Assembly: GCA_947462765.1 (NCBI GenBank)
Contig: CANHQK010000004.1
Coordinates: forward strand, 11,206 to 75,205
Length of the DNA: 64,000 bases
Source: Bdellovibrionales bacterium
GTDB taxonomy: Bacteria; Bdellovibrionota; UBA1018; CAIMNF01
Reading direction: 5' to 3'
Shown here piece by piece: positions 31,521 to 64,000 of the stretch. The notes below the pieces were generated by a model. It searched no databases, was not told where the DNA came from, and saw only the letters and a program-made list of their open reading frames with translations. How positions within the stretch are numbered: position 1 is the stretch's first letter; each line of letters starts with the position of its first letter. A program made the position numbers and the translations under genes.

Positions 31521-31776
31521 GAGATGAAAGTTTAATCTAGACGGTGGCGTTGCCTCGTCTGTTTCCTGGATCGATCCACCCCCCAGCTCCTGATGAGAGG
31601 AACTCGGAGGGAACCGGGGGGGATCGAAAGGAAAGGTTCGAAAAACAAGTTTTAACCGTGAACTGTCCGGTTTGTGAGGACCGGGTGGGACACACCAGAA
31701 AATCGGCATGGATTGCCGGCCGCGGATTTGGTCGTCTGCGGGTGATCATGGAGGACGCTTTTTATGGATGGATAGT

Positions 31777-32610: not shown

Positions 32611-32622
32611 TGAAAAAGAAAC

Positions 32623-32650
32623 TCCCCGGGGTGGCACTGCCCCCCGGGGA
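32623..32650 (+). terminator. GC-rich stem-loop after flagellin 2 (no U-tract)
   Basis: TCCCCGGGG (10-nt loop) CCCCGGGGA, a 9-bp perfect stem. It is followed by CTAAACC, not a T-run, so it is a hairpin of uncertain terminator function. Confidence 0.4.
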
Positions 32651-32736
32651 CTAAACCAAAACGGCAAGGATGCTGTCTGCACATCAAGGAACGTGTGCGG
32701 ATCTTAGGGAGAAGAAGAATATGAACGGAGGCTGAT

Positions 32737-38588: not shown

Positions 38589-39989
38589 TTATTTTTTAGG
38601 AGGTAGGCACTGGAGCACCTGGATCGACTTCTCGTTCCGAACCGTGATCCCTTCGATATTGCATTTGTCGTTCACAAAAAACCGGTAGGCCCCGGTCTTC
38701 AAAACGAAGGGGAAGTTGGTGATATAATTTCCCAGCTCCTTCTCTCCCCCATCAAAAACATGAAAACCGACATTGGTCGGATAATTCACCTGAACGACTC
38801 CAATTCCATCAATAGTGATTTCATGTTTACCGCCCGGAACAATCTTGAATTTCTGCTCGATCTTCTCAAAAAAAGGATCCCCTGATATCCGGACATCATA
38901 AACACCCGACTTCACAATGGCCGGTTCGTCGCTAGAAAAACTTTGCACAACTTTTTTATCCTTGTTCAGGATCTCGACATCCAGGAGGCCCTTGAAAAAA
39001 TGCACGGTCATCTGCCCCGAGCCCGCCACACGGAGGGTCACTCGCTTTCCGGGCGGGATCTTGAACTCCTTGAATGAGTAGACCGGTTCCAACAGCACCT
39101 CGGCACTGTAAGTCCCGGGGGGTAGGCGGACTCCATACGATGAAATAAAATCCCGAACGTAGACTCGCTCGCCATTCTTGATTTCAAACAGCCTCACCGT
39201 GGCTTTCGGATCCGGACTCTCGACAAACAAGTTATTGCCGACCCGTTTACCCTGGGCATTGGTTGCCCCTCCCATCATATTGCTAATGTCGTCGAGGGAC
39301 TGCTGGAGCTGCTCCGGGGACTTCGCACCGAAGGTCTTTCCAAGACATCGCAACTTATCGAGATCTTTGGATTTTTCATCAAGTCCGATCCCCGTAACGA
39401 ACATCTCGAGATCGACGATCTTCTCTTGAATCGCCTTCTCGAGAATCTTGCAACTGTCCCCGCCGCAGGTCTCCTCTCCATCCGTATAAATCATCACCCG
39501 TTTGGGACCCGGGTAATTCTTCAGCTGTTCGATCGCCAGTTCAAGCGAGTCCGCGATCGGAGTCATCCCGAGTGGCGACAGTTGCTTCACAGTACTGTCT
39601 ATCTTAGTCAGATTTCGCTCTCCAACCTTGATAGCAAGATAAGTGTCACCACAATCCTGCTTCCGGCGGCTGCCGTAAACCACCATCCCGACCTCGGCCT
39701 TTTCACGCCACTGATAACGAAGGTATTCATTAAACAACTTCTTGGCATAAAACATCTTTGATTTGCGTCTATCGAGCAACTGTCCCATCGATCCGGAGCT
39801 GTCCAAAAGGATCACCACTCGCGGCTTTAACGCCTGTTCGAGATCCTCATCTGAGTATTCGATGCTCGTCTGGAGGTCCTTCAAATCCGGGATCTCGAGC
39901 TTGAATGGCGTCGGGGTAGGGCTGCTCCGCGCATCAGCCCTTTGAGCAAAAAGAAGCAGGAACATAAAGCCAACCAGAATCAGCCTCAT
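38589..39989 (-). CDS. Secreted von Willebrand factor A (VWA) domain protein with a C-terminal beta-rich region
   Basis: Signal peptide MRLILVGFMFLLLFAQRADA. MIDAS motif VVILLDSSGSMG (DxSxS) with downstream ...T.IADSL... and YTDGEE. The C-terminal ~230 aa have repeated beta-strand-like segments. Confidence 0.8.
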   Translation of the reverse strand: MRLILVGFMFLLLFAQRADARSSPTPTPFKLEIPDLKDLQTSIEYSDEDLEQALKPRVVILLDSSGSMGQLLDRRKSKMFYAKKLFNEYLRYQWREKAEVGMVVYGSRRKQDCGDTYLAIKVGERNLTKIDSTVKQLSPLGMTPIADSLELAIEQLKNYPGPKRVMIYTDGEETCGGDSCKILEKAIQEKIVDLEMFVTGIGLDEKSKDLDKLRCLGKTFGAKSPEQLQQSLDDISNMMGGATNAQGKRVGNNLFVESPDPKATVRLFEIKNGERVYVRDFISSYGVRLPPGTYSAEVLLEPVYSFKEFKIPPGKRVTLRVAGSGQMTVHFFKGLLDVEILNKDKKVVQSFSSDEPAIVKSGVYDVRISGDPFFEKIEQKFKIVPGGKHEITIDGIGVVQVNYPTNVGFHVFDGGEKELGNYITNFPFVLKTGAYRFFVNDKCNIEGITVRNEKSIQVLQCLPPKK

Positions 39990-41305
39990 TTCTTCTTCTT
40001 TCCGCCTGAAAACAGGCTTCTGATCGGATCTTCAATTCTGACTCCAACCACAAAACGGAAATCCCCCTCGCGCTCGGTCGCCCGCGTACCTTCCGGAAAA
40101 GATATCGGAACCGGGACCGACTCCAGGGTCACAGGTCCGGAAAAACGCAAATCATAACTCCGGAAACCATAAGACCCTTCGATGAACCAGCGCTTGAGCA
40201 AGGGAATAAAATCAATCCACGCGAGAGCTGTGGCACTCACGCGCACAGCCATTCCCGTAGACCCCGGAGAACTGGTTCCTCGTGATACGCCCTGGTCGGC
40301 AGCTGTGAGGATCGGAAAGTAGCTCGCATCCAGGGTCAGTCCCTGAAACGCGAACGCAAAAAGGGATTTTTTCTCCGGCTTCCAAATCAGCGGCACAAAT
40401 GAATACCTGGCTCGGATACCCAACCCCATTCCGCTCACCTCGGTAGTGAGCAGGTTCTCGTCGGCATTGTCGGTCGAAAAACGATCACTCAAAGAATCGA
40501 TACGCCCCGAAATCTCGAGCTTTTTACCAAGTATTGGCGGGAATCGGTAATGGAAGCCGAGCACTGAAACCGCCTCCTCGGAGGTCACCACATTTGAATA
40601 ATAGGTTGAGGTCGGAAAGCGTCCCCCGTGGGAATCGGAAGTGATTCCAATTGGATAAAAATCAGAAAAATACGCCCAATGCTGATTTGAAAATCGGTAC
40701 TGGGTCGTGCGCTTCTCTAGATTTGCAACAGTGGTGCTCGTAGTGTCCAAGTCGCCCAAAAGGAGGCCCATGCCAAATTCAGCATATCCGGGACGGTCAT
40801 TGACACGATCTGAGGACTCCTCTTCAGGTAATAAAAAGTCATTCTGACCCTTCACATCCCCGTTTGCGAGCGAATTGGGGTCCGCCAAGGGAGCGCCAAA
40901 ATCGCCCTCGATCGGGTATTTGATGACCGTGTCTCTATCCAAATCGACTTGCAGCTCCAAGACTCCTGACTTGGGATTTCGCGTCTCCGAAATGACACGC
41001 CCGGTTGCAATCACCTCAATTCTTTGGCCCTTCTTTCGAAAAAACATAACGGGAGCACCGTCAACAAAAGAGTGAGCTCCAGGAAGCGTCAACGATACGA
41101 CCCCCTCTTCCTCACGAACTACTCGCATGGCCGACTTCATGAGCTCTTGCAGTTTGGGCGCCAAAAAAGAAACCCCCTGGGGCTTCGGCGAAGGGGATGG
41201 TTCAACCTCAGCAGCCCTCGCCATTAAGGATGAGCCGAGCCCCGTGGCTAAGCCACCAAAGAGAACAAGCCCGGCAAGGAGGAGCATTTTTTTGACTGAT
41301 TCCAT
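39986..41305 (-). CDS. Putative outer-membrane beta-barrel protein (first gene of the OMP-VWA-birA operon)
   Basis: Signal peptide MESVKKMLLLAGLVLFGGLATG. The C-terminal 250 aa show many amphipathic beta-strand-like segments ending in aromatics (VSVLGFHYRF, GLGIRARYSF, LFAFAFQGLTLDASYF, FIEGSYGFRSYDLRF, DFRFVVGVRIE). ATGA overlap with the VWA gene. Confidence 0.55.
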   Translation of the reverse strand: MESVKKMLLLAGLVLFGGLATGLGSSLMARAAEVEPSPSPKPQGVSFLAPKLQELMKSAMRVVREEEGVVSLTLPGAHSFVDGAPVMFFRKKGQRIEVIATGRVISETRNPKSGVLELQVDLDRDTVIKYPIEGDFGAPLADPNSLANGDVKGQNDFLLPEEESSDRVNDRPGYAEFGMGLLLGDLDTTSTTVANLEKRTTQYRFSNQHWAYFSDFYPIGITSDSHGGRFPTSTYYSNVVTSEEAVSVLGFHYRFPPILGKKLEISGRIDSLSDRFSTDNADENLLTTEVSGMGLGIRARYSFVPLIWKPEKKSLFAFAFQGLTLDASYFPILTAADQGVSRGTSSPGSTGMAVRVSATALAWIDFIPLLKRWFIEGSYGFRSYDLRFSGPVTLESVPVPISFPEGTRATEREGDFRFVVGVRIEDPIRSLFSGGKKKK

Positions 41306-41533
41306 TCAAGTAATTTTCAATTATTATTATTGAAAACAGTGTATCTCCCGGTACTTGGGTTTGCACTGATTTAATTGATAAAGCACGAACCGCATGGCCA
41401 ACGTATCGCATGAAACTCAAGTGTTCTTGAACTTATTCCGATCCCACTCTAAGCCTACGTCTTTCGCAGGCAGGGTCCGAAGGGACACATTGACGCTACC
41501 CACGCAGGTTTTTACACTGATGATTGGGGTTGC
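41306..41533. promoter_or_regulatory. Divergent intergenic control region between the OMP-VWA-birA operon (-) and the giant-lipoprotein operon (+)
   Basis: 228 bp that are AT-rich relative to the genome. They contain the inverted repeat TTTTCAAT-N7-ATTGAAAA at 41314-41336 and a lone TTGCAC / TTGATT cluster. No CDS. Confidence 0.5.
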
Positions 41534-44500
41534 GTGAAAGTTTGGGGGAATCCAGTGCCATTTCGCGGCGTAGGAAAATCACTATTACAGCTTTCGCTCA
41601 GGGGATTCCTCACGGGGATTCTTTTGGCAGGATGCTCGGACCTTGGGTTCCAAGGTGGCGTGATTCCGACGAACTTCAATGGCATCAAGGTGATTGAAGC
41701 CGTATCGCCCGAGGCTTTTCAGATGACCTGGGATCCTTATCCTGGGGCTACTCAGTACCGCGTCTACATGCCAGAACTCAATGAACCCATCGCTCGCCCC
41801 GGGTTCACCACACTCATCACCCGGCCTCCGGGAGGAGTGAACAGTAACGATGGAACCTATTCTTTCTCCGTTACGGCCGTAGATCCGACCACAGGATTGG
41901 AGCAGGGAACGCGTAGCAATTATGTTTCCGCCAAGCTCCTGCCTCGCTTCAACTTCAAGGAAGACGGTGACATTCGCGCACTAGACATGATTCCTTCCAC
42001 CCGTCACGCCGTTCGCGTGGCCTGGACCGCTTACCCTAAGGTGAACTACCAAGTTTACATCGGTGAGCGCTCCCCTTCTGGCCTTGTTGCTTACAACCTG
42101 GATGCTTCGTCCGGCTCGGTACTCGGTGACGGTTCGATCGAGATCGAGAACCTAAAAGAAGGTCGGGAATACTGCGCATTCGTGATCGCGACCTATGCGG
42201 ACTCCACCCGGGATGGCCCGAACGGTCAGCCCTTTACCGGCCCGGTAGCGTCTTTGGTCGGAACACCGTCTACCTTCAACACCAGCGTGGTAGGCACCTC
42301 TCAGAAGTGTGTGCGCACCAAGTCGGACCCTGCCTTTACGAGCACGGTAGAGCAAAGCAAGGTTTACGCTTCCAAGGCCACCCTTTCTAACAAACCCTCC
42401 TTTTTTGCCGACGTCGCAGGGGATACGACCTCGGATGGACAGGGATCTGTTCGGGTTTCCATTTACCGCATGGATGTCGCAACGGGCAATGGAACCTACA
42501 TAGGTGCGTTCAATGGTACTGGTAAGATTGATGCGGCCGAACCCCTTCCTCCCGGCCGTCACACCTTCAAAGCGATCTTTGAAAAACTCGGTGGCAATTC
42601 AACCGCTCAGAAAGAAAAGGGCGTGATTGTAGGTCCGACCGGGATTGAGCCCTCCGAACCCGTGGGAAATCCAGCAGACCGCCCATTTGTTTACGTCCGC
42701 GGCCTGGGCGCAGCTCCCACAGACGAAGGATATTACCCCGAGAAACAGCAAGGGGGGCTCGGGTCACAGCGCATCGGTGCTGCCGTTGCCATGGGTGATT
42801 TCAATTGTGACGGTCGATATGATGTGGCGGTCGGAATGCCCGAATACGTGATCACCTTGCCCGCGCCGGACAACCGCCCGGCAAACTTGGGTAAAGTCAT
42901 GGTCTATTACAACATCGCCTCGAGTGCCTCTTCCACGGCCCAGGGGGTTCGTTCGCAAGAGATTATTTTCAATCTTTCCGACAGAACCACCACCTTCCCA
43001 GGTGGCCGTGATCTGAGGCTTGGAACGCGGCTCCATGTCGGGAACTACAATAGCGACAATCAGGCAACGCACAATCCGCCAGGATACAACGATCCGACAC
43101 TGAATAAACAGTTCCAGTGCGACGACCTTGTAATCGGCTCGGGTTATGGACCCAGTATCTTGATGTATGGCTCTCGCGACACGAGTGGATCCAACGGAGG
43201 CTTGGTCTACAGTGGTCCCAAAGTGTTCATGGAGAACACCCAGTCGTGTAACCCGATTGATAATCGCTGTGACCCGACAATTTACTTCTACTCCAACCCC
43301 GCAGTCTCGCTCTGCCGCAGTTATACAAATGGCGACTTTAACGGGGATGGGTTTGAGGACTTGGCCATCGGAAGTGGTTCCGGTGCCGGGATTTGGGTGC
43401 TCCGTGGGAGTGAGTATGGGCTCATTCCGCCGAAAGCCCGTCGATTCTCCTCTGACCAAACTGCCTATACCTTTACTGGGGGAGATACTTTTTCAACCGA
43501 CGATGGGCCGGGTGGACGGATTAACTTCCCGTATGTTCACTCGAACACGAGCAGATTCTTCGCCCCATCGAGTTTCAGCAATGGATTCGCACCCTCTGCC
43601 ACTGGCTGGAGCAACACCAATAATTTCGGAGCCTCACTCGGGGCAATCCGTAATGCATTTTACGACCCGGACAACAACAGGTCTAAATCGATTCTGCTAA
43701 TCGGGAGTCCAGACACTCCCAGCACAGGCGCCGCCGGGACGACCCAAAGCAGAGGCCGCGTGTTCGCTTGCGTCCTCAGATCATTGACCGGGGATCGTCC
43801 TTCACCCCTGACCGGAACTTTCAGCAACTCGTTCAACAATGATTCAATGGAAAATCAGGCGTGGGATTGCAATCATGCGATCAATCCTCCCATTCGCTCA
43901 GGAGTCCAGCCCTTCACATCAATCGCCTCGGCCTCAGGGTTCGGCTCAGCAATGGCGACCCTCGATAACCCTCTGAGATACCGTGTCGCGCCTTTTTGGG
44001 AAGGAGGCTCCCAAGAATCGTGTCCTGCGATTGCTGGGGGTGTGGAAGCTCCTCGAGCTCACGGAAACTGCTCCTCTAGCTCGTTGAACTTGGGGATCCC
44101 CGGGGGAGTCGCCATTGGGGCCCCGGGTAGCAATCAAGTTTTCGTTTACTACGGTGTGGCCGTACCCGGAGCGATGGGGACTCGAAACACCCAAGGCTCG
44201 GCCCGCAATGCCTACATCGGCCAGTACTTCGATCGGCTACTGGATGGTTCCACCAATACAGTTCACAATACGACCTCAGGAAGCACCAGTGCCCCGGCCT
44301 ATGCATCAGAAGTAACAACCTCTGATCCATGCACCGCCACCAACTCAAACACGGAAGCATGCTACATCCAATTGATCACCCAACCCTCGACACCATCCGG
44401 GTCTTTCGGCCTGACCTTGTCCAGCCTTAGAGGAAACATCATCTCAAACGAAGGAGACAGTCCCCAGGACTCAACCCTCGGGGTATCCGCACCCTACCGC

Positions 44501-53324: not shown

Positions 53325-53353
53325 CTGAATCAGGACGAAAGGGAAGAGGGGGG

Positions 53354-56300
53354 GTGAAACGCTTGAAGATGTCGTGGCTATCTGCACTGCGCGTGGGCGC
53401 GATCTCACTTCTTCTGGGTTCGTGTACCGGGGGCGAAAACGCTCTTCCCAATCGGGCCGGGGGAATTCGGATCGCTCCGGGGGAACGCGTACACGTGGAC
53501 CTCCAGGACATTGTCGCCCTGAACCCGCGTCGATACAATGTCGTACTGAAAACCGTAGGCCCGGACTATCTTCCTAAAGGGGACATTTTGGATCTAACCG
53601 CCGCAGCCAAGGCGGCACTGGCAAGTGGATCCACCCGATTTACTTTCACGCTCCCCAAAAACACCACGACTCCTAAACCCTTCCTTCTGGCCGTTGATAT
53701 CCCCGACCTCAACATCAATGACTCTCTTGTTGATGTGGTTTTTTCGGGTAACTCATTCGTAAGGCCCGGAATTGCTTCGCGTTTGGCTTTTGATCTGCTG
53801 GATTCTTACAACACGACACAGAATCCAAAACCAATTCAGGCCTACAGTGAAGCGGAATTCACTGCCATTCGGGGAATTATTCAATCCCGCATCGATGCTT
53901 TGATGTCTCAATCTGAAAAGCTCAGCTTTTCAGTTCTTCCTTATCTCAAACTCATGACTTTTTTTCGGAACGGACTGGCCTACAACCCCTGGGTGTTGAG
54001 CGCTGTCCGCGATTTCGGAGTCAATTTCACCTTCACGGAATCCACCTACCCGGGGATTGTCGCCGAAGACACCATCGAAAACTCGCTGAATACCTGCACA
54101 CGCGAAATTTGCTTCAAACTTGCCCGCGACTTTAAAATCAATTCTGAGAATGCACCGGTTGCGCCCTTCAAAGCCCGAGCCAATGTGGCCACTGAGGTCC
54201 CGGTCGGCCAGGCCATACCGATGCCCGGCAAGAACATTGCCGTGAGCGAAGGCATGTGTGGCATCTCCGGATGCTCTCCCCGTTTGAGCGTCGTCGTTAA
54301 GCCTTTCGACCCCGAAGGAGACCATATAGAAAAGCTCCTCTGGGTAAAATATCGACCCAGGCAACTTCCTCCGTCCATGAGGAACCGCCCGACCTTCGAC
54401 CCACTTAAGGAGCCGATTGAAAAATCCACGGCTCTCAAGTCCGACTCGTTTGGAAAATACCTGCCCGTTACGGACATCAGCCTTGATGAGCCGGACCGTT
54501 ATGAGCTATATGAAATCAGCCATGATGAAGCCCTCTTGAAGCGCAACTATCCCGATAGCGTTTGTGCAGAGAGCGGCGCCCCAGTATTCAACGACCAGTG
54601 TCACACGGCCTATCGCGATGTTTTTGCCATGTACACCGACGGCATGGTCTGGGTCCCCTACCGGTGGAACTTTGTATACAATGACACCAACCGCAAACCG
54701 GAATTCATCAGGAACGCACAAAACGAGATCAACAGTACCCTGTACGACGAGGCCATCCAGTCGGGCTTCCCCAACCCCGAGTCCGATGTTCCGGGTGTTC
54801 CGGGGTGGAAACTCCACAATTCCCATTGCGAAAACAACCCGAACGCCACCCCCACTCCAGCCGCTCCTCCATCTGCACAGCCGAGCGGGACCCCGATCAT
54901 CAACTACTACACCCGGATCCAGGATAAGAAGGACGGCCCTTGGAGCTGTGCTTTTTTGGCTTTCGATCCCGACATTGATCAAGACCCCAACGGTGCCCCG
55001 GACCAGTTCTACTTCAAAGTGACCGGCAGAACCATGCAGACCAAGATCCGTTTGGGTGGGCAGATCACGGCTTCGAGCCCGGGGGTGCCGTCAACATTTA
55101 CTCAGATGCCGATGCCCTTTTGGCCTCCACCACCGCCCCCAGCCACACCTCGCCCTCCCCAGCAGGCGCCCATGGAGTTGCTGAGCTGCCCCGCTGGCCA
55201 CACCCGATGCGGTGCTGCGATTGCCCAAGTCACCGTCGATAATGCCGTGAAAGAACAGACCCCGGAGGTTTCGTTCGACATAGAAGTGTTTGATCGCGCC
55301 GAAAACGGGATGTTTTCAATGGCTACCGCACAGAGAGGGGTGATGTTTTCCCCCAAACCGCCACTGTTGATCAACTTCTCAGACCCGCCAACGACCCGCG
55401 AATCATTCAATACGATCACCAATTATTTCCCTGAACCCAATGGTCAGGCTGAGCCGATGCGCCTCAGGTTCGACGCTTACCTGGATGAGATTTTAGCTCA
55501 GGCATTGCCCGTTAACAATTCTTACGAAGCCATCGGTTTTGATACGAGCATGCTTGGGAATACCAACCGAGCGAACTTTAGAATTCAGTCACTAGAGCCT
55601 GGCTTAATTGACTTCAACATGAGTCCTTATCTGACCCAACCTAGATCACTCTGTTCGAGCGCTAGCCCGACAGACAACGGCACCCAATGTCGCGGAACCT
55701 TTAATGTGGGGACAGCGACCATCAATGGGGAATTGCGAGTGATCCAAGGTTCGCCAGGAACCTCCGTGAGGATGGGCAACTCCCTGCGCTTTGCAGACTC
55801 CGGAAACTATTCATTTCCCCGTGAGTATGACTTTTCTTGCTTCACCAACTCCGGACCGGGGTGGAATCAGACTCCCGTGTCAACCGCTACAGGTCGGAAT
55901 ACCTCAGGGGGCTGGGCATTCGAGATCAACTTCATTGACTTTGACAACGTCAACTTAAATCCTGACGAACCGCCTGAAGTCATGTACCTGAGTCCCCAAA
56001 ACAATGTCCGTCATTCGGACTCGTTATTCTACTGTAATGCGCCTGCCCCGAATATGGACTCTCCCATTTTGGGGCATGTTTACACTGCAACCAATGCTGC
56101 GGGCACCAACGCCAAAGACCCGGATCAGTGCCTATCTCTTGCCCCCCTTCAGGGCAAGATCACCCTTCAACCCGTACCTGTTCTTTATGAAGGCACAGAA
56201 ACCCTTGGCGCTGCCCCATCGATCAGAAAATTAGTGTATCACCGGATCCGTGGCATCTGGAGGCCCAAGGATCAAGGCCTAGAGGGCAAAACGGACAACC

Positions 56301-59300
56301 AAGATCCCCGAGGACTGATCCAGAATGCATTGACACGCTTCAAGGTTTTCGGGCGCTTACATGACCTCGGTCTTGAGAACAAAGACTTTGACCGCTCCGA
56401 GCCAATTGTTTTTCAGTACGGGCGAAACATCCCTCGCCCCCTCCAATTTCTGGCTCAAAAGCGCGAGATGGCGCCCTGCTTGGCCGGAAACGCGATCAGT
56501 AACTCGACCCAACAACTGAGCAGCAGCAACCCAAACGGAACGGAGATCCGTTTTGCAATCCAGGACGAGAACAAGACCAACTCGACTGTACAAACCTTTG
56601 CGGGTTCAGTGAGAGGATACGATGAGGCCCAACTGGAAGTCCTCGGAAGCCGAACGCTCGGGGACTCCGAGTTGCTGAAGTTCATTCCCTACCTCTCCAA
56701 CTGCACAGTTTCCGAACCCGCACCACCATCAATGACTGTGAATGTGACCCATCGGTGGACTGCCGTGCCGGGAGCGAATGGATACATCGTTGATGTGGTT
56801 TACCCCGGTGGGAGCCAGATGGGGAACATCGTGGCTTCAACGAGCCATACTGCAACCAATCTGCCAGCTTTTCGGGATGTGGACTTTATCGTTCATCCCA
56901 CATTTCCAAATCCAACTCCTCCACTCCCATCTCAAACTCCGACTCCGAATCCAATTCAAACCACTTACCAGACATACGCTTTGGCTCCGGCAACCAGCAC
57001 AACCACTCCCACCTTGCCCCGTCCGGCGGTGTGGAGCGTTTCCAATCCGGACTTGGTTTCAAGTCCATTTATTCGCCTGAGAGCCGCATACGATGCCCCG
57101 ATCTCGGCCAATCCGTTTTGCTTGAAATCCAACACCTTGCCCTTGACCGGGGCTGGGGGCGCTGCATTCGACGGGGTTTGGCGCGTGGCTCGAACCGATA
57201 CGACGACAACTGACCGACTGAAATTGGCTTCTATCATCTTTTCAAACTGCACAGATCAACCCAACGTTCTGTTGCATGCTGACGCAAAAGCGCTTTACTT
57301 TGCCGTGAAAAGATCGGCCAACCCGGCCTGTAATGTCCCGGTTGGGCAACAGGTATTGGACCAGAACCTGGATTGGAGGAACCCAGACAATAGCCCGGCT
57401 ACACCAGGCCGACTGATGGTGCACTCGGTCTGGGCTCTTGATCCAACCTCCGCGGAGTTCGGATCACTGAGCCTTCCTGTGGCATTGACCTCCGCCAACT
57501 ACTTTTTCGACCTCTTCCCGTCTCTCTTTGGTCGAACCACTGGATTACCAAATTTTGTCACCGCCGCACACTACAACGAGCAAAATCGGCTGTTGTTTTT
57601 CGTGCGCCCGTTGAATCAATTCATTTATAACAATGTTTTTCAGTCCATCTCCGGCTACGGTCGCAACACTTACGCCGGCGCCTGGAACCCCACTGAAATC
57701 GGGGCCACCGCGATCAGTAATCAGCTATTAGCCGGCCCTCCCGATCTCGAGAGCCGCTTGCCCCTCACTAATAACACGGAATACGCTGCCTTCTCCCGCA
57801 TGCCTCACCTACCGATCAATGCCGGAGGAACTTACGATGTATCCATTTCCTACGGGGATGTAGACGCGCAGATCAACAAGTTGGTCACCCCCGGTACCTT
57901 GAACTCAGGAAGCCTGGTTTCCGGCGATCCCGATACCTACTTCCGGATGGAGAGCTCAAACCAGGTCCTGGCGATCTACGCTAAGCCGCTTCCCTCCTCT
58001 TCTTCCTCGCCGAGAACCATATCGATTCCCGTGCAGGCCCTCGACCAATACGATGAAGCCAACCCGAAGGTCGAGGACGATCCCTACGATGTGATCACGT
58101 ACGGAATTTCGACAATCGGCCCATCGAGTTCACCCGTTCCCCAAGAAATACCTAGTTTGTCTGGCTTCGGCACACGGGGAGCGAACTGCAGTTCAGGACC
58201 CAGCACCTATCCGACAACGATCTCGACCCGCAATTTGGTCAGCCTGCAGGACTTCAAGCGTTGCATTCTCCAGTGGCGGATTTTTCCACAGGATGCGGGT
58301 AAGGAGTTTTCATTTAATCTGGTCGCTCAAGACAACCTCGGGGCGACTCCTAGTGTTCCCGGGGTCGGCGGGTCTGGAAACCAGAACGGCCCCAGCAGAA
58401 ATTTCACAGTTAGAATCTTTAGCCTGGAACAAAATCAGAAGCCGTTTTTCACATCGACACCGGGATCCACAACCGCCCTTTCCTCCGCCAGCTACAATGG
58501 TGGGACCTCGGTCAGCTCCTGGAATCAGGTCTTCACCACCGCCGGCGGGGCGAGCCAGGCCGGAGTACAGCCGACGTGCATTCCCGGATCCACCTCTCTT
58601 CCTTACTCTTGCGTTCTGTCGCCACCCGCGTCAGCGACGCTTGCGGTTGGGACCGGAGATGTGTTGATTAACTCGACTCCCATTGAATTCGATGAATCCG
58701 CCCTGGTCGGGCAAGTATCGCCCGAGTACGAGATCCAGGTCCACGCCAAGGACACTGCATCCCTCGATCCGCTCAAGAATATCATCGTAGACTCCAGCCG
58801 GCCCACCAGGGGTGTGTTAATTGCGGGGGGGGCCAACAAAGGGGCGACCTACTTGATGCCTTCTTGGACGAGCCTGAGCGTCACAGAAAGTGGCGCTTCG
58901 GATTATGACGTTAATTCGGACGGAACGAACGATACTCGAGGAAAGACCTTTACGATCAGGTGGCGCCCGAGAGACGAGGAGGCGAGATTTCTTTCAAACT
59001 CCGAGGGGTTCCTGATTCCATTCAACCTCACGGACAGTCCTTATGTTCCGGGCGGGAGCGGAGCCCCGGCAGGGTTCCAGATCAGCGCCGAACGCGTCAC
59101 GGCTTGGGTTTGGGTCAGGCTGAGAGTGAGGAATCATGCGCCTCTTGTATCTTATTTTGTCAACCCCGGTGCCAATCCCAATGCCTCCGACTGGAAGTCG
59201 CTGAACTCGGGTGAAACCATCGAGGTGGTCGCCGGCAAGTCCGCAACCGTGAGGGTTCGTGTCGTGGATGCTGACCATGCCCGGGTCTGGGCACCCAATG

Positions 59301-62278
59301 GTGGCGTCAACAGCACGGAACTTGCGTCTTCTTATCTGCGCCCGGCAGACACTTATCCGCATCCTTATTTTCAGCCCATTGACCAAATTGCGAGCTTTTC
59401 GACCGCAGCCAACCCCTCTGCACCATCTAGCGTCACTGCCGACACCTTCATGGGGCTGAACGACTCGAACGGAAGGAGAGTGATTCAACAGACTTTCGAC
59501 TTTACCGTTTCACCTCCTGCTGGCGAATCCGCCGTTAAAAAACACGAAATCAAAATCCATGTCCGAGACCCGGGCGATCCGACACTCGACCTCGCACTCA
59601 ACGGATCAACCGTGGACAGTAGCGGCAGCCCGAAGCGCGTGGTGTCGCCCCCCATCGAGCTGAAACTCAATGTGAACGTCACAGGCAAGGCCGGGTTTCT
59701 GGCACCGAAGACGCAGTCCAATCCGATTCTGATCACCTCTCCCCGTTCCACCATCACGCGGATGAACTTTCGTTTGGCCCTGAAAGTCACGAATGCCTCC
59801 GACCTTGCTCCGACAAATGCGAACAAGAACTTCTTCATGGGGATCTTGGTGAGGGGAGCCACCTCGACTTCACCTAATACAGTTCCAACGGCCACCCCAT
59901 CCTCTGGCCAGATTCCGAACAATTCAGGGTTTTATGTGGATCAGAACTATTCTCTTTTCCTGACCCAGGGTTCATTTGCCTCCAGCTCAAATGAGGGCCA
60001 GATCAGGCGGTTTGAATTGGGAGCGGTGAATAACAGCCATTGCCCGAGTAGTTTGATGTCCACAGCCCCAACCGCGACCAACCCCTCGCCTGTCACTTAC
60101 CCGATTGTTCTCGCCCGGATCAACACCTCTGGTACACCTGCCATACAGTATTGCTACCTCACCCCCACCGCAATAGCCGATGGCTTGGCCCAAACGGTGG
60201 TGGATCACCAAGTTACCGCTGAGCTTCAGTATCCAGCGGTTCCCTCATCGCTTTACCGGGCAGAAATTGAACGACTGAGTCGACCCCTGGTGACCTCGAG
60301 TCAACCCGAACTGAATGCGGAGTTTCAAGATTTCTTCAATCGTTGTCGGTCTTTTACCGGCGGGGCAGGATACTGTTCATCTTACGATAGCGGCACTCTG
60401 TCACTCATCGGAGGCAACCTGACCACCGGTGGCGCCCCCGGTAATCAGCTGGTTTATAATTCCGGCAATAATCAGCAAGCTATTTTTAGTGTCTCAGCAA
60501 CCGATCGAGTGACCAAAATCGTGAGGGACCTGGCACCGAGCAATTCACGGAGCTTGGAAGCCTACGCATTAAAAGGGGAGACACTGAAGTTTACCGCTGA
60601 AATCGATCCTGCTTTCGGACTGGATGCGGCTCGACCCATTTTTGCCCGCTGGTACGTAAATGGCTGCCTCAACCAGGTGGATACGATCACGAGTGCATCC
60701 CTTCCCCCATTTGAAATCAAAGCAAGCGACCGGGGAGCGGGACCGCAAAATGACTGCAGCGGAAAGTTCGAGAGGACCAACGAGCCCTTGGCAGGTGATC
60801 TCGGCCTCTACCTTGTACGCTTGGTGTTGGTGAATGGCGGAGAGGCGACCAACACATCGAATGCCTCACTGGACCACCCGGCCAGCAGCACCTCGGCAAC
60901 CTACCTTTACCGCGTGCGGGTCGTGAATACCCGCCCCGAGGTGATGACGAACTCGAGCGGGAGAGGTGCCGTTTCAGTGGCGCTTTCTCAGGCTACCGTT
61001 CCTCTTGCTATCCCATTCAAGGAATATTCCAGAAACCTGATTGCCTTCGTGGCAAAAGATACGACCTCACAAACGGCGAACTTCATCCGGATCCGTGAAT
61101 TGACCTCAACAGGAGATCTTTTGACTTCGAGTGCGACCGTGAATTGCGCAGTTTCAGAGACGCCTCGATGGCTCGGAGTGCATCCAGTCGGCTCTAACCT
61201 GAATGTGGCCCTTCTAGGGAACTCGAGCCGATGGTCACCAGGATTGGACCTTGCCTCTGCGTATCCGAGTTCAGACTCTTTATACGGTTCCAATTCGTTT
61301 GGTTGCTACAGATCCTTTGCCTCCAGCGCAATCAGCGGTGTGGTTCAGCCTGGGGCAGCCGGATCCAGCATGGTGGCTTCGACGGCAGCCCTTTCCAAGT
61401 ACACTGCCTCCTCAAGAGTCACCGCGAATTGGGGCGGAAGTTATCTCTTTGACTCCGAACTGCCCTCGGACACGAATGCCTCACGGACCGTTTCAAGCCG
61501 AGAATTCTGGAGCTCCACTACGCTTTTACAATCCAATCCCGCTTGCCCCAACGGCTCAGGATCCTTCTTGCCGAACCTCTTCGGCTGCAACCCGAACCCG
61601 TACACTGCATTTCCAAAAAATCGCGTATACAAAATGTTCACCTCAGGAAATACGCTGTTTCAACTCATGGGTCCCGGCCCAGGGATTGGTGATCAATCCC
61701 AAGGCCAGATTTTGGTCCACAGCCTGTCGGCGAGCGCTTCCTGGAGCGGGAACACTGCGGTCTCGTCGAACCTCAGAACCCTTACATTCGGCCCATCGAC
61801 CGGGGGGGGCACCACCTGCGTTATTCCGAATACGGTTCTGCCATTTCCGGTGGATGCCACCTACCACAGCCAAAGCGACACCCTGTATGTCATCACAACC
61901 GATACCGGCTCATCAGCTCTAGGTGATTTCATGATCATTCGAGGGGCTACGACGAGCTCACCTTCTTGTTCGTCGGTCGGGAAGGTCGCAAAACCTTCGA
62001 CGGACCCATTGGTGAACAATACCAACCTCACGAAAATGGTCGTGGATGCGAACCGGGGACTGGTCTATGCATTGATCACCCTGGACTCCTCGGGAGAGCT
62101 GATCGTATACGACACGATCACAGGCCTTCCGCCCGAGAGACAAACTCTTGGCTTTTCGCCCCTGACCCTCCTTTTGTACGATACCGGTCAGGGCGAAACC
62201 CATAACAATCTAGCTCTCATCATGAGTCGGCAGTACGTCACTTCATCGAATGCTCCGGCCCTTTACAGACTTTACTGA
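53354..62278 (+). CDS. Giant secreted/lipo-protein 3 (~2974 aa), compositionally distinct (S/T/N/G/P/A-rich), no FG-GAP motifs seen
   Basis: Signal plus a probable lipobox ISLLLGSCTGG. Proline tracts (PMPFWPPPPPPATPRPPQQAP, PTPTPNPIQTTYQTY). Very low Lys/Arg/Glu content. Ends ...ALYRLY with a terminal aromatic. 30-nt gap after gene 2 with SD GGGAAGAGGGGGGG. Confidence 0.75.
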   Translation: MKRLKMSWLSALRVGAISLLLGSCTGGENALPNRAGGIRIAPGERVHVDLQDIVALNPRRYNVVLKTVGPDYLPKGDILDLTAAAKAALASGSTRFTFTLPKNTTTPKPFLLAVDIPDLNINDSLVDVVFSGNSFVRPGIASRLAFDLLDSYNTTQNPKPIQAYSEAEFTAIRGIIQSRIDALMSQSEKLSFSVLPYLKLMTFFRNGLAYNPWVLSAVRDFGVNFTFTESTYPGIVAEDTIENSLNTCTREICFKLARDFKINSENAPVAPFKARANVATEVPVGQAIPMPGKNIAVSEGMCGISGCSPRLSVVVKPFDPEGDHIEKLLWVKYRPRQLPPSMRNRPTFDPLKEPIEKSTALKSDSFGKYLPVTDISLDEPDRYELYEISHDEALLKRNYPDSVCAESGAPVFNDQCHTAYRDVFAMYTDGMVWVPYRWNFVYNDTNRKPEFIRNAQNEINSTLYDEAIQSGFPNPESDVPGVPGWKLHNSHCENNPNATPTPAAPPSAQPSGTPIINYYTRIQDKKDGPWSCAFLAFDPDIDQDPNGAPDQFYFKVTGRTMQTKIRLGGQITASSPGVPSTFTQMPMPFWPPPPPPATPRPPQQAPMELLSCPAGHTRCGAAIAQVTVDNAVKEQTPEVSFDIEVFDRAENGMFSMATAQRGVMFSPKPPLLINFSDPPTTRESFNTITNYFPEPNGQAEPMRLRFDAYLDEILAQALPVNNSYEAIGFDTSMLGNTNRANFRIQSLEPGLIDFNMSPYLTQPRSLCSSASPTDNGTQCRGTFNVGTATINGELRVIQGSPGTSVRMGNSLRFADSGNYSFPREYDFSCFTNSGPGWNQTPVSTATGRNTSGGWAFEINFIDFDNVNLNPDEPPEVMYLSPQNNVRHSDSLFYCNAPAPNMDSPILGHVYTATNAAGTNAKDPDQCLSLAPLQGKITLQPVPVLYEGTETLGAAPSIRKLVYHRIRGIWRPKDQGLEGKTDNQDPRGLIQNALTRFKVFGRLHDLGLENKDFDRSEPIVFQYGRNIPRPLQFLAQKREMAPCLAGNAISNSTQQLSSSNPNGTEIRFAIQDENKTNSTVQTFAGSVRGYDEAQLEVLGSRTLGDSELLKFIPYLSNCTVSEPAPPSMTVNVTHRWTAVPGANGYIVDVVYPGGSQMGNIVASTSHTATNLPAFRDVDFIVHPTFPNPTPPLPSQTPTPNPIQTTYQTYALAPATSTTTPTLPRPAVWSVSNPDLVSSPFIRLRAAYDAPISANPFCLKSNTLPLTGAGGAAFDGVWRVARTDTTTTDRLKLASIIFSNCTDQPNVLLHADAKALYFAVKRSANPACNVPVGQQVLDQNLDWRNPDNSPATPGRLMVHSVWALDPTSAEFGSLSLPVALTSANYFFDLFPSLFGRTTGLPNFVTAAHYNEQNRLLFFVRPLNQFIYNNVFQSISGYGRNTYAGAWNPTEIGATAISNQLLAGPPDLESRLPLTNNTEYAAFSRMPHLPINAGGTYDVSISYGDVDAQINKLVTPGTLNSGSLVSGDPDTYFRMESSNQVLAIYAKPLPSSSSSPRTISIPVQALDQYDEANPKVEDDPYDVITYGISTIGPSSSPVPQEIPSLSGFGTRGANCSSGPSTYPTTISTRNLVSLQDFKRCILQWRIFPQDAGKEFSFNLVAQDNLGATPSVPGVGGSGNQNGPSRNFTVRIFSLEQNQKPFFTSTPGSTTALSSASYNGGTSVSSWNQVFTTAGGASQAGVQPTCIPGSTSLPYSCVLSPPASATLAVGTGDVLINSTPIEFDESALVGQVSPEYEIQVHAKDTASLDPLKNIIVDSSRPTRGVLIAGGANKGATYLMPSWTSLSVTESGASDYDVNSDGTNDTRGKTFTIRWRPRDEEARFLSNSEGFLIPFNLTDSPYVPGGSGAPAGFQISAERVTAWVWVRLRVRNHAPLVSYFVNPGANPNASDWKSLNSGETIEVVAGKSATVRVRVVDADHARVWAPNGGVNSTELASSYLRPADTYPHPYFQPIDQIASFSTAANPSAPSSVTADTFMGLNDSNGRRVIQQTFDFTVSPPAGESAVKKHEIKIHVRDPGDPTLDLALNGSTVDSSGSPKRVVSPPIELKLNVNVTGKAGFLAPKTQSNPILITSPRSTITRMNFRLALKVTNASDLAPTNANKNFFMGILVRGATSTSPNTVPTATPSSGQIPNNSGFYVDQNYSLFLTQGSFASSSNEGQIRRFELGAVNNSHCPSSLMSTAPTATNPSPVTYPIVLARINTSGTPAIQYCYLTPTAIADGLAQTVVDHQVTAELQYPAVPSSLYRAEIERLSRPLVTSSQPELNAEFQDFFNRCRSFTGGAGYCSSYDSGTLSLIGGNLTTGGAPGNQLVYNSGNNQQAIFSVSATDRVTKIVRDLAPSNSRSLEAYALKGETLKFTAEIDPAFGLDAARPIFARWYVNGCLNQVDTITSASLPPFEIKASDRGAGPQNDCSGKFERTNEPLAGDLGLYLVRLVLVNGGEATNTSNASLDHPASSTSATYLYRVRVVNTRPEVMTNSSGRGAVSVALSQATVPLAIPFKEYSRNLIAFVAKDTTSQTANFIRIRELTSTGDLLTSSATVNCAVSETPRWLGVHPVGSNLNVALLGNSSRWSPGLDLASAYPSSDSLYGSNSFGCYRSFASSAISGVVQPGAAGSSMVASTAALSKYTASSRVTANWGGSYLFDSELPSDTNASRTVSSREFWSSTTLLQSNPACPNGSGSFLPNLFGCNPNPYTAFPKNRVYKMFTSGNTLFQLMGPGPGIGDQSQGQILVHSLSASASWSGNTAVSSNLRTLTFGPSTGGGTTCVIPNTVLPFPVDATYHSQSDTLYVITTDTGSSALGDFMIIRGATTSSPSCSSVGKVAKPSTDPLVNNTNLTKMVVDANRGLVYALITLDSSGELIVYDTITGLPPERQTLGFSPLTLLLYDTGQGETHNNLALIMSRQYVTSSNAPALYRLY

Positions 62279-62298
62279 TTCGGCAGATACTGTTTGGC

Positions 62299-63252
62299 AT
62301 GGGCAAAAGAATGATCCGAGTTCTCGTCCTCACCTTGCTTACCGCACTGTCGGTCGTGGTTTTCTTCCGCCTCCGCACGCGCCCTGACACCCCACCCCCG
62401 CCCTCAGTGCAGAAAATTTTTCAAGACAGGCAAGCCCAAGCAAGGGCCATCCTCCTCACCCCGCTTGCAAACCTGGTTCAGACACGGGACTGGCCCGCAC
62501 TGAAGGCGCGGAGCGGTGAGCCCGGATTCGGACAGTCTCTTGCCGAAGTGGTCCGAGCCATGCATGTTGAACTCAAATTCCAGGAATGGACTCCGCAAGA
62601 CCACGCCCAACTCACTGAAATGCTTCTTGTCGGCCTTTCCGGAGCTTCAGAGCCAGAGCTATTGTCCATCATTCCTCAGATTGAACGCCTTCCCTCTCCA
62701 GTCAGCGACTCTCCCGCGGCATTGAGACTCAGAAGGTTTCTTGACCCGGGACAACCCGAGGTTCTGCGGGTGTTCGCCTTCAAGAAACTGGTCATTCACG
62801 AGTCCAAACCCGAAGCATCCGACATCGATCGTGGAATCCGGGCCCTCCTACCCGCGCCCAAAACAAAAGGTGGGATCAATCCGTTTTTGCTCGTAGACGA
62901 GACCAGGAATGACCAGGTCAAAAAGACTCTTCTTTCAAAGCTAGCGGCCAGCTGGGCAAAAATCGATCGCTCGAGGGCTCCTACCACCCTCTACCTTCTT
63001 TGTCGCAACATCCAGAGCATTCCCCAGTTCTACTCGAAAGGTTGGTCCCTCACGCTCCAGTCCTTACAATCCAAAGACTCACTTAGCATCGAATATGGGC
63101 TCAGGAGCTTGGTCTACCTCCATCAGTTTAAAAAACTGCCCCCTGCTGAGGTTGAACGGGTCGTCAGTATTTTGACATCGATTCCCACGCCACGACGCAG
63201 TCCGTTCATCCAAGAAAAATCCAATGAAATCATTGAGATGCTACAACGCTAA
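62299..63252 (+). CDS. Membrane-anchored hypothetical protein (317 aa)
   Basis: N-terminal signal-anchor IRVLVLTLLTALSVVVFF, then a soluble domain. Sits 21 nt downstream of giant gene 3 on the same strand. Confidence 0.5.
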   Translation: MGKRMIRVLVLTLLTALSVVVFFRLRTRPDTPPPPSVQKIFQDRQAQARAILLTPLANLVQTRDWPALKARSGEPGFGQSLAEVVRAMHVELKFQEWTPQDHAQLTEMLLVGLSGASEPELLSIIPQIERLPSPVSDSPAALRLRRFLDPGQPEVLRVFAFKKLVIHESKPEASDIDRGIRALLPAPKTKGGINPFLLVDETRNDQVKKTLLSKLAASWAKIDRSRAPTTLYLLCRNIQSIPQFYSKGWSLTLQSLQSKDSLSIEYGLRSLVYLHQFKKLPPAEVERVVSILTSIPTPRRSPFIQEKSNEIIEMLQR

Positions 63253-63295
63253 ATTTTTTTAAGCTGGCGTGTGTCTTTTCCGAAGAGTGTCTAGG

Positions 63296-64000
63296 ATGGA
63301 AACACTCTATCGAAATTTAAGAATCTCTCTGGCGATGATGGCGGTCTTCGGCCCCCTCCTCACTGATGCTTCACAGGCAAACGAGGTCATATCGGCGGCT
63401 GAAATCCAGCACTTCGAACAAACCTACGAAGACCTGGCGGCAAAGGTCATCCGGAGCCTACAGCCAAAGCTAGAATTCACCATTCTGGCCCGGGTCGAAC
63501 TCAGCGCCCACCCTGAAAAACTGGCCGCCTACGAAGAGACCAGAGCCACCCACCACCTTCCCGGACTTCCAGAGGTCACCGATCCGAACTACACTCATCC
63601 GTTCGAGAGCCCGTTACTTCCTTTACTCGAAAAGAAAACCATCAAGATTTTTTTCCGTTCCGCACTTTCACGGGATCAGGACCGCGTCATCCGTGAAGTG
63701 ATCCAAGCCAAGTTGAAACTCACCGCCTCAGACCACCTCGTTTTCGAGTCAACCGGTGGACCCACCAGCAGTGTTGCAGAGCCTCGCCCATCAAACAGAA
63801 AGATTGCCACAATCGGCCTGATTACCGGCATTGTCATGCTTGGATTCGGGCTCCTCGGCCGCAAGGCGAAGCAACAGGGATCGAACCTCGCCACAGATAG
63901 TACCGGTGCCGCTTCGGCCACGACCCTACCCGCCACTCACCAGATCGCAAACGCCAATGCGGCGACTCTACGGGAAGCTCTAGCACAAGAGCGAGTCGAT
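63296..64000 (+). CDS. Hypothetical secreted/membrane protein, partial (continues past the window end)
   Basis: Hand translation from ATG 63296: METLYRNLRISLAMMAVFGPLLTDASQANE... (signal peptide), a ~150-aa domain, then a TM helix IATIGLITGIVMLGFGLLG and a Ser/Thr/Ala-rich tail. No stop before 64000, so it is absent from the ORF track. Confidence 0.4.
   Translation, partial: METLYRNLRISLAMMAVFGPLLTDASQANEVISAAEIQHFEQTYEDLAAKVIRSLQPKLEFTILARVELSAHPEKLAAYEETRATHHLPGLPEVTDPNYTHPFESPLLPLLEKKTIKIFFRSALSRDQDRVIREVIQAKLKLTASDHLVFESTGGPTSSVAEPRPSNRKIATIGLITGIVMLGFGLLGRKAKQQGSNLATDSTGAASATTLPATHQIANANAATLREALAQERVD

Follow-up and report, generated by a model that had tools for sequence, protein, structure and literature searches.

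A giant-lipoprotein locus of uncultured Bdellovibrio-like bacteria is linked to a flagellar-type stator and FliF/FliG-like proteins: a candidate envelope-spanning machine

We analyzed a 64,000-nucleotide stretch of a Bdellovibrionales genome (GenBank assembly GCA_947462765.1, contig CANHQK010000004.1, positions 11,206 to 75,205 of the forward strand; hereafter referred to as the window), focusing on a locus at 38,589 to 64,000 in which three giant lipoprotein genes (G1, G2 and G3) stand divergently to genes for an outer-membrane protein (OMP) and a secreted VWA/MIDAS protein. They appear to make up the variable half, the one facing outward, of a conserved system that spans the envelope. The whole cluster has at least 16 genes, covers about 35 kb and runs on beyond the window edge through the genes of the rotor-like proteins S2 and S3 and the stator proteins MotA and MotB. 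Its carriers are an uncultured freshwater Bdellovibrio-like lineage represented by metagenome-assembled genomes (MAGs). We lean towards reading the system as a new ion-driven, envelope-spanning machine that would move, tension or display hypervariable giant adhesins, with gliding or prey contact as its likely output.

The locus continues into a motor module

The first-pass annotation of the window described a cell-surface locus with tightly stacked giant lipoprotein genes, which our analysis upheld, and interpreted it as a passive structural assembly lacking an energizer, which was contradicted by same-species contigs. The last 300 bp of the window were found in three of these contigs (L003, L004 and L009; L numbers denote the loci examined), where S2, S3, MotA and MotB follow on the same strand with gaps of at most 43 nt. 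The S2 portion in the window is 100% identical to P0005. Since the window ends inside S2, the passive interpretation is an artefact of the window edge; likewise, the statement that the locus holds no enzyme or transporter is true inside the window and untrue beyond it, where MotAB and an S8 protease are encoded. Past MotB, the cluster comprises b220 on the opposite strand, a TPR lipoprotein, b206, X1082 and the S8 subtilase. A distant G3 homologue (L002) is also followed by two proteins with FliG_C matches and then by MotA and MotB. Two small membrane-anchored proteins had been noted after the giants, and both are present, but S2 proved to be a paralogue of S3 with a FliF-like periplasmic fold (predicted) rather than a generic small anchor. 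All six open reading frames (ORFs) called earlier (VWA, OMP, G1, G2, G3 and S1) were recovered in our ORF map. The features of the cluster are as follows.

VWA protein, 38589-39989, minus strand: secreted VWA/MIDAS protein of 466 aa; VWA domain at residues 58-230, followed by a Cys-containing C-terminal half
OMP, 39986-41305, minus strand: 439 aa; signal peptide, periplasmic beta domain (~60-140), disordered linker and predicted OpcA/OmpT-like barrel (~174-425)
Divergent control region, 41306-41554, no strand: sigma-70-like site upstream of G1
G1, 41534-46924, plus strand: giant lipoprotein of 1796 aa from GTG 41534; lipobox LAGC; Fn3-like N-terminal modules
G2, 46911-53324, plus strand: giant lipoprotein of 2137 aa; lipobox LASC; two propeller regions (about 390-750 and 1060-2137)
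G3, 53354-62278, plus strand: giant lipoprotein of 2974 aa; lipobox LGSC; assigned to no family
S1, 62299-63252, plus strand: 317 aa, directly after G3; N-terminal transmembrane anchor and periplasmic body; no Pfam family
S2, 63296-64000, plus strand, truncated at the window end: residues 1-235 of 334; signal peptide, RBM3-like domain (~30-155), transmembrane helix (168-190), cytoplasmic helical domain
S3, beyond the window: 628 aa; ring-building motif (RBM), transmembrane helix and FliG-like part
MotA, beyond the window: 270 aa; flagellar-type stator protein
MotB, beyond the window: 382 aa; plug and OmpA domain
b220, beyond the window, opposite strand: 220 aa; small outer-membrane barrel with C-terminus ...NFY
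TPR lipoprotein, beyond the window: 300 aa; PEGA/TPR protein; weak PEGA match; Cys-Ala-Thr conserved around the lipobox
b206, beyond the window: 206 aa; small outer-membrane barrel with C-terminus ...TTF/ASF
X1082, beyond the window: secreted protein of 1082 aa
S8 subtilase, L004 13064-13603 and L012 20362-22780: closes the cluster in the window lineage; best NCBIfam match mycosin-like, below cut-off

From G1 to MotB, eight genes lie on one strand with gaps of no more than 43 nt (window-equivalent 41534 to about 68172), a spacing from which a single transcript of about 26.6 kb is probable; terminator and promoter scans inside this operon gave site counts no higher than shuffled controls. The C-termini of b220 and b206 are typical OMP terminal signals. 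No NCBIfam match was obtained for OMP, b220, b206, S1, S2 or X1082, and the PDB sequence search returned nothing useful for X1082. The contig carrying the continuation (CAMCGZ010000001.1) is labelled 'MAG: Bdellovibrio sp. ZAP7' (Pseudobdellovibrionaceae). Bdellovibrio sp. ZAP7 also exists in culture, and its genome has been completed (NZ_CP030082; PMC11656739); however, none of the contigs found to carry the exact S2 sequence exceeds 1 Mb.

MotA and MotB resemble flagellar stators

In PDB searches, MotA matched PomA best (8brd, E = 5.6e-32) and thereafter MotA entries only, with no match to ExbB or TolQ; in NCBIfam, its PomA match (1.8e-46) far exceeded that to TolQ (1e-5). MotB contains the Pfam domains MotB_plug (1.3e-17) and OmpA (1.3e-15). 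The equivalent of PomA R88, the rotor-facing Arg, is invariant in all eight MotA sequences compared, and that of E96 is acidic in six of the eight. The channel prolines are kept, and the MotB motif SYADMMTLL, with its Asp, is invariant. By these sequence comparisons, MotA is closer to flagellar stators (FIT) than to ExbB, TolQ or AglR. In a published stator phylogeny, flagellar-type stators form one flagellum-associated clade, and the generic types (Exb, Tol and Agl) are distinct from it (PMC12505986). Neither protein reached the flagellar equivalog cut-offs of NCBIfam, the best scores being 158.5 vs 341 for MotA and 153.9 vs 283 for MotB.

S2 and S3 combine a FliF-like domain with a cytoplasmic part

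S3 begins with a signal peptide, a domain of ~130 aa, one transmembrane helix and a charged linker, which are followed by a FliG-like part detected by Pfam (FliG_M 27.8, cut-off 25; FliG_C 28.8, cut-off 23.3). The S3 profile matches residues 122-319 of Aquifex FliG (3hjl, 1.2e-11) and Thermotoga FliG (1lkv, 1e-10). Among 18 S3-like sequences, the position of E. coli FliG D289 is Asp in every one and that of R281 is K or R in 16, and residues vary at the D288 position. Where FliG has EHPQ, the motif that binds FliM, these sequences have E-x-x-x with no conservation, and FliG_N was not detected in S3, the signal peptide, RBM and transmembrane helix standing in its place at the N-terminus. Against the flagellar FliG model TIGR00207, S3 scored 37 bits (cut-off 226.7).

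S2 and S3 share their N-terminal domain and transmembrane helix (hhalign probability 96.8), and both carry a positive-inside patch after that helix; profile comparison of their cytoplasmic domains detected nothing shared beyond the RBM and transmembrane parts. The periplasmic domain next to the helix is predicted to have the fold of FliF RBM3. In a Foldseek search with the S2 model, FliF RBM3 structures were among the matches listed (E = 6e-3 for FliF), and no match reached 1e-3; the best PDB sequence match of the N-domain profile was a weak one to SpoIIIAG (E = 0.025), and neither Pfam nor NCBIfam gave a YscJ/FliF match for S2 or S3. Taken together, S2 and S3 look like natural RBM-TM-FliG-like fusions (TM, transmembrane helix), with a topology that would result if FliG were attached to the C-terminal part of FliF. 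MS-rings are known to form from engineered FliF-FliG fusions (PMC11481574).

The family is rare: from 1.84e9 proteins, exhaustive HMMER searching with the profile of S2 retrieved 39 representatives (22 S2-like and about 15 S3-like), and four species were obtained from the GTDB species set. All ten representatives looked up are derived from MAGs or metagenomes, seven of them nameless, two named 'hypothetical protein' and one auto-named FliG. The metagenome scan for S3 was seeded by an 8-sequence alignment. Two S3-like genes lie close to SpoIIE-type phosphatases: an orphan gene in L023 (9983-11923; 646 aa, FliG_C 5.8e-10), located among housekeeping genes beside a SpoIIE/PP2C phosphatase, and the S3-like gene of L017 (14077-16077), which is adjoined by a HAMP-SpoIIE gene. 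Such a phosphatase may be a regulatory partner.

Giants, OMP-VWA and motor are linked in three gene orders

A synteny check, as the first-pass annotation had proposed, placed the giants, OMP-VWA and the motor module next to each other in three gene orders across about 20 contigs. In the window type, VWA-OMP is divergent from G1-G2-G3-S1-S2-S3-MotAB and the genes after it. In L015 and L016, G2 and G1 read leftward and are followed by OMP, serpin and VWA reading rightward, then by b206 and TPR leftward, b220 rightward, and MotB, MotA, S3 and S2 leftward. The third order was seen on a 32-kb JGI contig (Ga0206918_1042; L026 and L001), where S2-S3-MotA-MotB-b220-TPR-b206-(VWA)-(OMP) precedes the block G1-G2-G3. 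S3 adjoins MotA on about 20 independent contigs, G3-S1-S2-S3 are contiguous on 10, and VWA adjoins the motor module in L015, L016, L025 and L026. The linkage holds across lineages with G3 identity as low as 25-30%. Four proteins only were returned by the G3 homologue search, every G3-like gene with readable flanks adjoins cluster genes, and G3 orthologues occupy the same position at 10 loci. Since three gene orders keep the same families together, we regard them as strong evidence that giants, OMP-VWA and motor module belong to a single functional unit. In L017, a distant variant, the genes are VWA, a small barrel-like gene, a gene for a 1073-aa protein, TPR, MotA, MotB and an S3-like gene; the 1073-aa protein occupies the position of X1082, and tblastn detected no similarity between the two.

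The engine is conserved and the giants diverge

We compared the window genome with E1_MAG_00048, and the same pattern was obtained against D4_MAG_00031. Identities were 97% for MotA, 96% for TPR, 93% for S3, 91% for MotB, 89% for VWA and 86% for X1082, compared with 85% for the housekeeping enzyme BirA. For the remaining genes they fell to 69% (OMP), 64% (S2), about 50% (G2), 45% (G1), 32% (S1) and 31% (G3). Overall, identity between genomes is 91-98% in the motor core and only 31-52% in the giants; G2 orthologues share 48-52% identity, and G3 is only 30-31% identical to that of genomes whose MotA is 97-98% identical. By these sequence comparisons, the engine appears more constrained than a housekeeping enzyme, and the rate pattern is that expected of a conserved engine with exposed, diversifying outer parts. 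Such a difference between motor core and giants points to an arms-race surface, shaped by prey or substrate recognition or by phage pressure, and is relevant to predator host range. In addition, S1 lies directly 3' of G3 in 10 loci, and both are about 30-32% identical, while the neighbouring S3, MotA and TPR are 93-98% identical. G3 and S1 thus look like a co-evolving pair, and S1 may be a G3-specific partner.

A proposed mechanism and its alternatives

In the mechanism that we propose, the engine would be a flagellar-type stator of the MotA5B2 class, whose MotB contributes a plug and a peptidoglycan-binding OmpA domain. Its partner would be not a flagellar rotor but the single-pass proteins S2 and S3, each with a FliF-like, ring-building periplasmic domain. 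The OpcA-like barrel, the two small barrels, the PEGA/TPR lipoprotein and the VWA/MIDAS protein would form an outer-membrane platform, and the payload would consist of the hypervariable G1 and G2, with their FG-GAP propellers, and the orphan G3, with S1 as anchor. Ion flow through MotAB would push the FliG-like domain of S3, so that a ring of S2 and S3 is turned or dragged laterally. The motion might then be relayed through the periplasmic S1, X1082 and TPR lipoprotein to the platform, which would move, tension or expose the adhesive giants and the VWA protein, leading to gliding or prey attachment. A motility-associated role had been among the guesses of the first-pass annotation; it gains support here, with gliding as a likely output. 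We put forward more tentatively the proposal that the cluster encodes a non-flagellar motor in which MotAB would turn or drag a minimal rotor of natural FliF(RBM3)-TM-FliG fusions, without type III export, rod or filament, its output reaching the integrin-like giants by way of an outer-membrane platform.

Several points weigh against the adhesin-moving machine. We infer its function from sequence, predicted folds and synteny, and ring assembly and rotation of S2 and S3 are extrapolated from homology. No component was identified that might serve as a periplasm-spanning shaft. In the window species, no similarity to FliG was detected in the cytoplasmic domain of S2, and the AlphaFold2 model of S2, with a predicted local distance difference test (pLDDT) score of 70-88 in the N-domain, is poor outside it (mean 55.8). 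The giants have the features of lipoproteins processed by signal peptidase II (SPII), with acylation, final location and surface exposure as predictions. The orphan S3-like gene of L023 stands alone without MotAB. In L017, no giant gene was found within 10 kb on each side of the S3-like gene, and the giants may thus be accessory rather than integral. Finally, the window organism has flagellin genes at a distance of about 5 kb from the cluster, so a flagellar role for MotAB is formally possible.

The main alternative to adhesin movement is energized export or maturation, in which MotAB and S2/S3 would power the transport of the giants (1800-3000 aa) and the VWA protein through periplasm and outer membrane, or their maturation there, much as GldLM/PorLM do in type IX secretion and as TonB/Tol systems do; the giants would then be cargo, not moving parts. 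All payload proteins carry a signal peptide or lipobox with no other dedicated secretion system nearby, the GG[VINS]I and C-terminal motifs of the giants could be sorting signals, maturation by proteolysis is suggested by the S8 subtilase and by the serpin of some lineages, and the three outer-membrane barrels could form a conduit. We nevertheless consider this explanation unlikely, given that torque generation, and not secretion, is the only known setting for a FliG-like torque interface and for a flagellar-type stator anchored to peptidoglycan, that barrels of about 10 strands or fewer are too narrow for folded propellers, and that neither a C-terminal domain (CTD) of the type IX secretion system (T9SS) nor a Por/Gld homologue was found by Pfam or NCBIfam. 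By analogy with the T9SS, which does both jobs, export would not be exclusive of adhesin movement.

A flagellar accessory role is less likely, and we give it a slim chance. MotAB would then be one of several stator sets, S2/S3, TPR and the barrels an extra scaffold or stator-parking ring, and the giants a decoration of the sheath or pole. Bdellovibrio bacteriovorus has three flagellar stator sets, and periplasmic TPR scaffolds and disks of outer-membrane lipoproteins occur in other flagellar motors. This explanation would account for the similarity of MotA and MotB to flagellar stators and for the FliF-like and FliG-like folds, which are flagellar hallmarks, as well as for three flagellin genes about 5 kb from VWA, also present in L013. 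These are three tandem flagellin-sized genes at 30648-33570 on the plus strand (290, 300 and 277 aa); Pfam Flagellin_N/C was run on the first, and all three L013 orthologues carry precomputed flagellin matches, so the window organism is taken to be flagellated. However, L015-L019, L022 and L029 have no flagellar genes within 10 kb of the cluster, and the proximity of flagellins is thus lineage-specific. MotA (158 vs 341), MotB (154 vs 283) and S3 (37 vs 226.7) are all far under the NCBIfam equivalog cut-offs, and S3 has no detectable FliG_N or EHPQ. Moreover, the S2/S3 family, with its 39 representatives in 1.84e9 proteins, is far rarer than flagellated Bdellovibrionota, and the constant partners of the motor are the giants, VWA and outer-membrane barrels, none of which is known in flagella.

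That the locus is a passive structural coat or adhesin array beside an unrelated MotAB operon, as the lack of an energizer inside the window and the adhesin- or S-layer-like size and composition of the giants would allow, is very improbable in view of the adjacency of the modules in three gene orders at G3 identities down to 25-30%, the gaps of at most 43 nt from G1 through MotB, and the occurrence of the G3 family only beside this motor in the search results (4 proteins; readable flanks).

Comparison with known systems

The first-pass annotation had been unable to match the locus to any characterized operon, and our comparisons bear this out. The nearest parts lie in the flagellar motor core: MotAB is a FIT-type stator with plug, peptidoglycan-binding domain, the Asp and prolines of the channel and the R/E charges of MotA; the FliG middle and C domains occur in S3, together with the K/R and D of the torque helix; and the periplasmic domain of S2/S3 has the predicted FliF RBM3 fold. 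The cluster differs in that a single RBM and the FliG-like part are joined in one single-pass polypeptide, in the absence of a detected FliG_N or EHPQ from S3 and the scores of MotA, MotB and S3 below equivalog cut-offs, and in its partners, which are giants, a VWA protein and outer-membrane barrels. In addition, no genes for FliM/N, type III gate, rod, hook, filament or L/P-ring were found in the cluster of any lineage.

The Agl-Glt gliding machinery of Myxococcus xanthus has an outer-membrane platform with the barrels GltA, GltB and GltH, together with GltC, the lipoprotein GltK and the VWA adhesin CglB (PMC9946355). Both systems combine an inner-membrane motor driven by the proton-motive force (PMF) and single-pass inner-membrane adaptors with a platform of three barrels and outer-membrane (lipo)proteins and a VWA/MIDAS protein as the adhesive end, and both occur in predators formerly classed as deltaproteobacteria. 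In contrast, the Agl-Glt motor is the TolQR-like AglRQS of the GIT clade (PMC12505986), while that of the cluster is flagellar-type; the adaptors GltG/J are TolA-like, compared with RBM and FliG-like parts here; and the VWA protein of the cluster is not a lipoprotein, while Glt has no FG-GAP or G3-like giants. Membership of Agl-Glt/CglB was thus rejected: the CglB model gave 15.7 bits vs 200, its match being confined to 26 residues at the MIDAS, and the motor does not belong to the TolQR type.

Gliding and the T9SS of Bacteroidota, with the GldLM motor, GldKN ring and giant adhesin SprB (PMC13104615, PMC8986121), share the same concept, namely a PMF-driven 5:2 inner-membrane motor that moves or exports a giant adhesin through a periplasmic/outer-membrane ring. 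Pfam and NCBIfam revealed neither homologues of Gld, Por or Spr nor a C-terminal domain of the T9SS in the cluster, its giants are lipoproteins by their sequence features, and its stator is MotAB-type with a FliG-like partner. Zorya is similar in having, as ZorAB, a MotAB-like, peptidoglycan-anchored 5:2 motor outside the flagellum, and MotB matches ZorB models; however, MotA has neither a ZorA match nor the long ZorA tail, and no ZorC, ZorD or ZorE is present. A Zorya assignment was rejected, with PADLOC giving a generic similarity of MotB to ZorB only and none for MotA, S2, S3, VWA, OMP, S1 or X1082. Integrins recall the cluster in the FG-GAP Ca-loop repeats of G1/G2 and the MIDAS VWA protein encoded alongside; here, however, propeller and VWA are separate bacterial proteins whose pairing is hypothetical, and the repeats are 100-190 aa apart with large inserts.

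In the literature searched, no natural membrane-anchored RBM-FliG protein and no non-flagellar FliG-MotAB or FliF-FliG system is described, and we therefore rate the architecture of the cluster as categorically new, with a function that is wholly inferred. To our knowledge, the FliG-MotA interface is regarded as exclusive to the flagellum. If our interpretation is true, a stator paired with a FliF/FliG-like fusion shows that the torque interface has been reused or is older than the flagellum, which would bear on flagellar motor evolution either as a stripped-down exaptation or as a living analogue of a pre-flagellar rotor-stator stage. The cluster would then represent a previously unknown class of nanomachine and a new gliding or prey-grappling engine in Bdellovibrio-like predators. 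According to a 2026 review, the gliding machinery of Bdellovibrio "remains unidentified", its motor, adhesins and force path being a major open challenge (PMC13104615); the cluster is a testable candidate for motor, adhesins and force-transmission path in one lineage.

The giant lipoproteins

The three giants total 6907 aa, close to the ~6900 aa first estimated. The 14-nt overlap of G1 and G2 was reproduced, and the gap between G2 and G3, given earlier as 30 nt, measured 29 nt. The Shine-Dalgarno sequence of G2 (GGGGGAG) sits within the 3' end of G1, and a strong one, GGGAAGAGGGGGG, precedes G3 in the G2/G3 gap. As first reported, all three begin with a signal peptide and a Cys lipobox (LAGC, LASC and LGSC), and the lipobox is kept in orthologues. 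The concern that these large ORFs might be assembly artefacts or frameshifted was settled by independent NCBI, ENA and Logan assemblies, in which the full-length ORFs are identical or 99% identical; over its 2974 aa, G3 is matched at 100% identity in a separately built Logan assembly, and an NCBI MAG holds a 99% identical copy, the gene calls being in agreement. NCBI annotates G2 with the same start and 2137 aa. In L019 (701-8970), a G3-like gene is broken into ORFs of 157, 1026 and 1462 aa, which may reflect a pseudogene, a frameshift or an assembly error.

FG-GAP repeats were detected by Pfam in G2 (7.8e-45) and G1 (1.4e-13), and an iterated repeat hidden Markov model (HMM) assigned 12 units to G2 and 5 to G1, whereas G3 had none. 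The description of the first two giants as packed with such repeats is thus fair for G2 and generous for G1. Calcium loops of the form Dx[DN]xDGxxD are present in G1 and G2 and absent from G3. Weak PDB matches link G2 to integrin-alpha, including the propellers of integrin alpha-V and alpha-5. G1 and G2 share 27% identity over 233 aa (E = 1e-12), and by this similarity they appear to be distant paralogues. G3 is unrelated to both, as had been noted, and matched nothing in Pfam, NCBIfam or PDB sequences even at E<=10. The low-charge, S/T/N/P-rich composition that had been given as its trait is not special to it, since an S/T/N/P/G-rich, low-charge composition is common to all three giants (0.41-0.44). 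G3 contains 37 Cys, many as closely spaced pairs, and self-BLAST revealed no internal repeats, so it was rejected as a repeat protein.

Short motifs are kept in the giants despite overall identities of ~30-50%. A GG[VINS]I motif lies a few residues past the lipobox Cys of each, and the C-termini retain LQGGAFYV[LVH]P in G1 (46895-46924), GGGFK[LIM]xY in G2 (53295-53324) and P[TA]LYR[VIL][WY] in G3 (62255-62278), the window sequence reading LQGGAFYVLP for G1 and GGGFKLMY for G2. These motifs could be sorting or docking signals, or merely structural strands. The C-termini of G1 and G2 were considered as signals for the beta-barrel assembly machinery (BAM); more probably they are the last FG-GAP strand, whose pattern (G-x-hydrophobic-x-hydrophobic) recurs inside both. 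Known giant adhesin or toxin systems were likewise rejected: G1-G3 had no Pfam or NCBIfam match at E<=0.01 to RTX proteins of the type I secretion system (T1SS), to the CTD of T9SS cargo or to RHS/YD proteins, and no T1SS or T9SS genes were found in any locus examined.

The OMP-VWA pair and the divergent control region

The predictions that the OMP is a barrel and that the VWA protein is secreted with a MIDAS were both upheld. The OMP is modelled as a 10-strand OpcA-like barrel with a periplasmic N-domain; it had no Pfam match, and its family numbers 19 members among 5.8e9 proteins. Its gene overlaps that of the VWA protein by 4 nt. The VWA protein has a cleavable signal peptide without a lipobox, matches the Pfam families VWA_2 (36.2, cut-off 27) and VWA (2.2e-7), and contains DSSGS, which conforms to the DxSxS pattern of the MIDAS; the PDB sequence search returned nothing useful for it. 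In some lineages, a serpin gene lies between OMP and VWA (L015 12377-13264; L016 1885-2868). Together with the S8 subtilase, the serpin makes up a protease/inhibitor pair, which may act in the processing of the giants or the VWA protein.

The spacer between OMP and G1 measures 228 bp and has 44% GC vs about 55% nearby, confirming the AT-rich control region described at first. It contains the block GACACATTGACGC, which is conserved in L013, and a promoter-like site on the plus strand (TTGACG-17-TACACT, 41490-41518; one site vs 0.4 expected in the promoter scan). With this site, the start at 41534 is disfavoured, because the leader would be too short. The more likely start of G1 is GTG 41555, seven codons downstream, because it has a GGGGGA Shine-Dalgarno sequence and aligns with the start of the orthologue; G1 would then have 1789 aa. 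A sigma-54-like GG-N10-GC element seen by eye in the spacer was rejected, its spacing being off by one. A perfect palindrome, TTTTCAAT-N7-ATTGAAAA (41314-41336), abuts the OMP start codon and is not conserved in the L013 spacer.

Genes elsewhere in the window

A 497-aa protein encoded 20 kb from the cluster (18165-19658, plus strand) has an N-terminal GYF_2 domain (8.1e-16); a GYF domain is also present in the Myxococcus gliding protein GltJ. Four ORFs, at 7140-8072 (minus), 8130-8837 (minus), 10482-12002 (plus) and 1440-2153 (minus), had no Pfam match at 1e-5. The remainder of the window consists of housekeeping genes, namely sdhAB and those for patatin, LigA, RadA, GlpK, transketolase, RNase R, PyrD and BirA.

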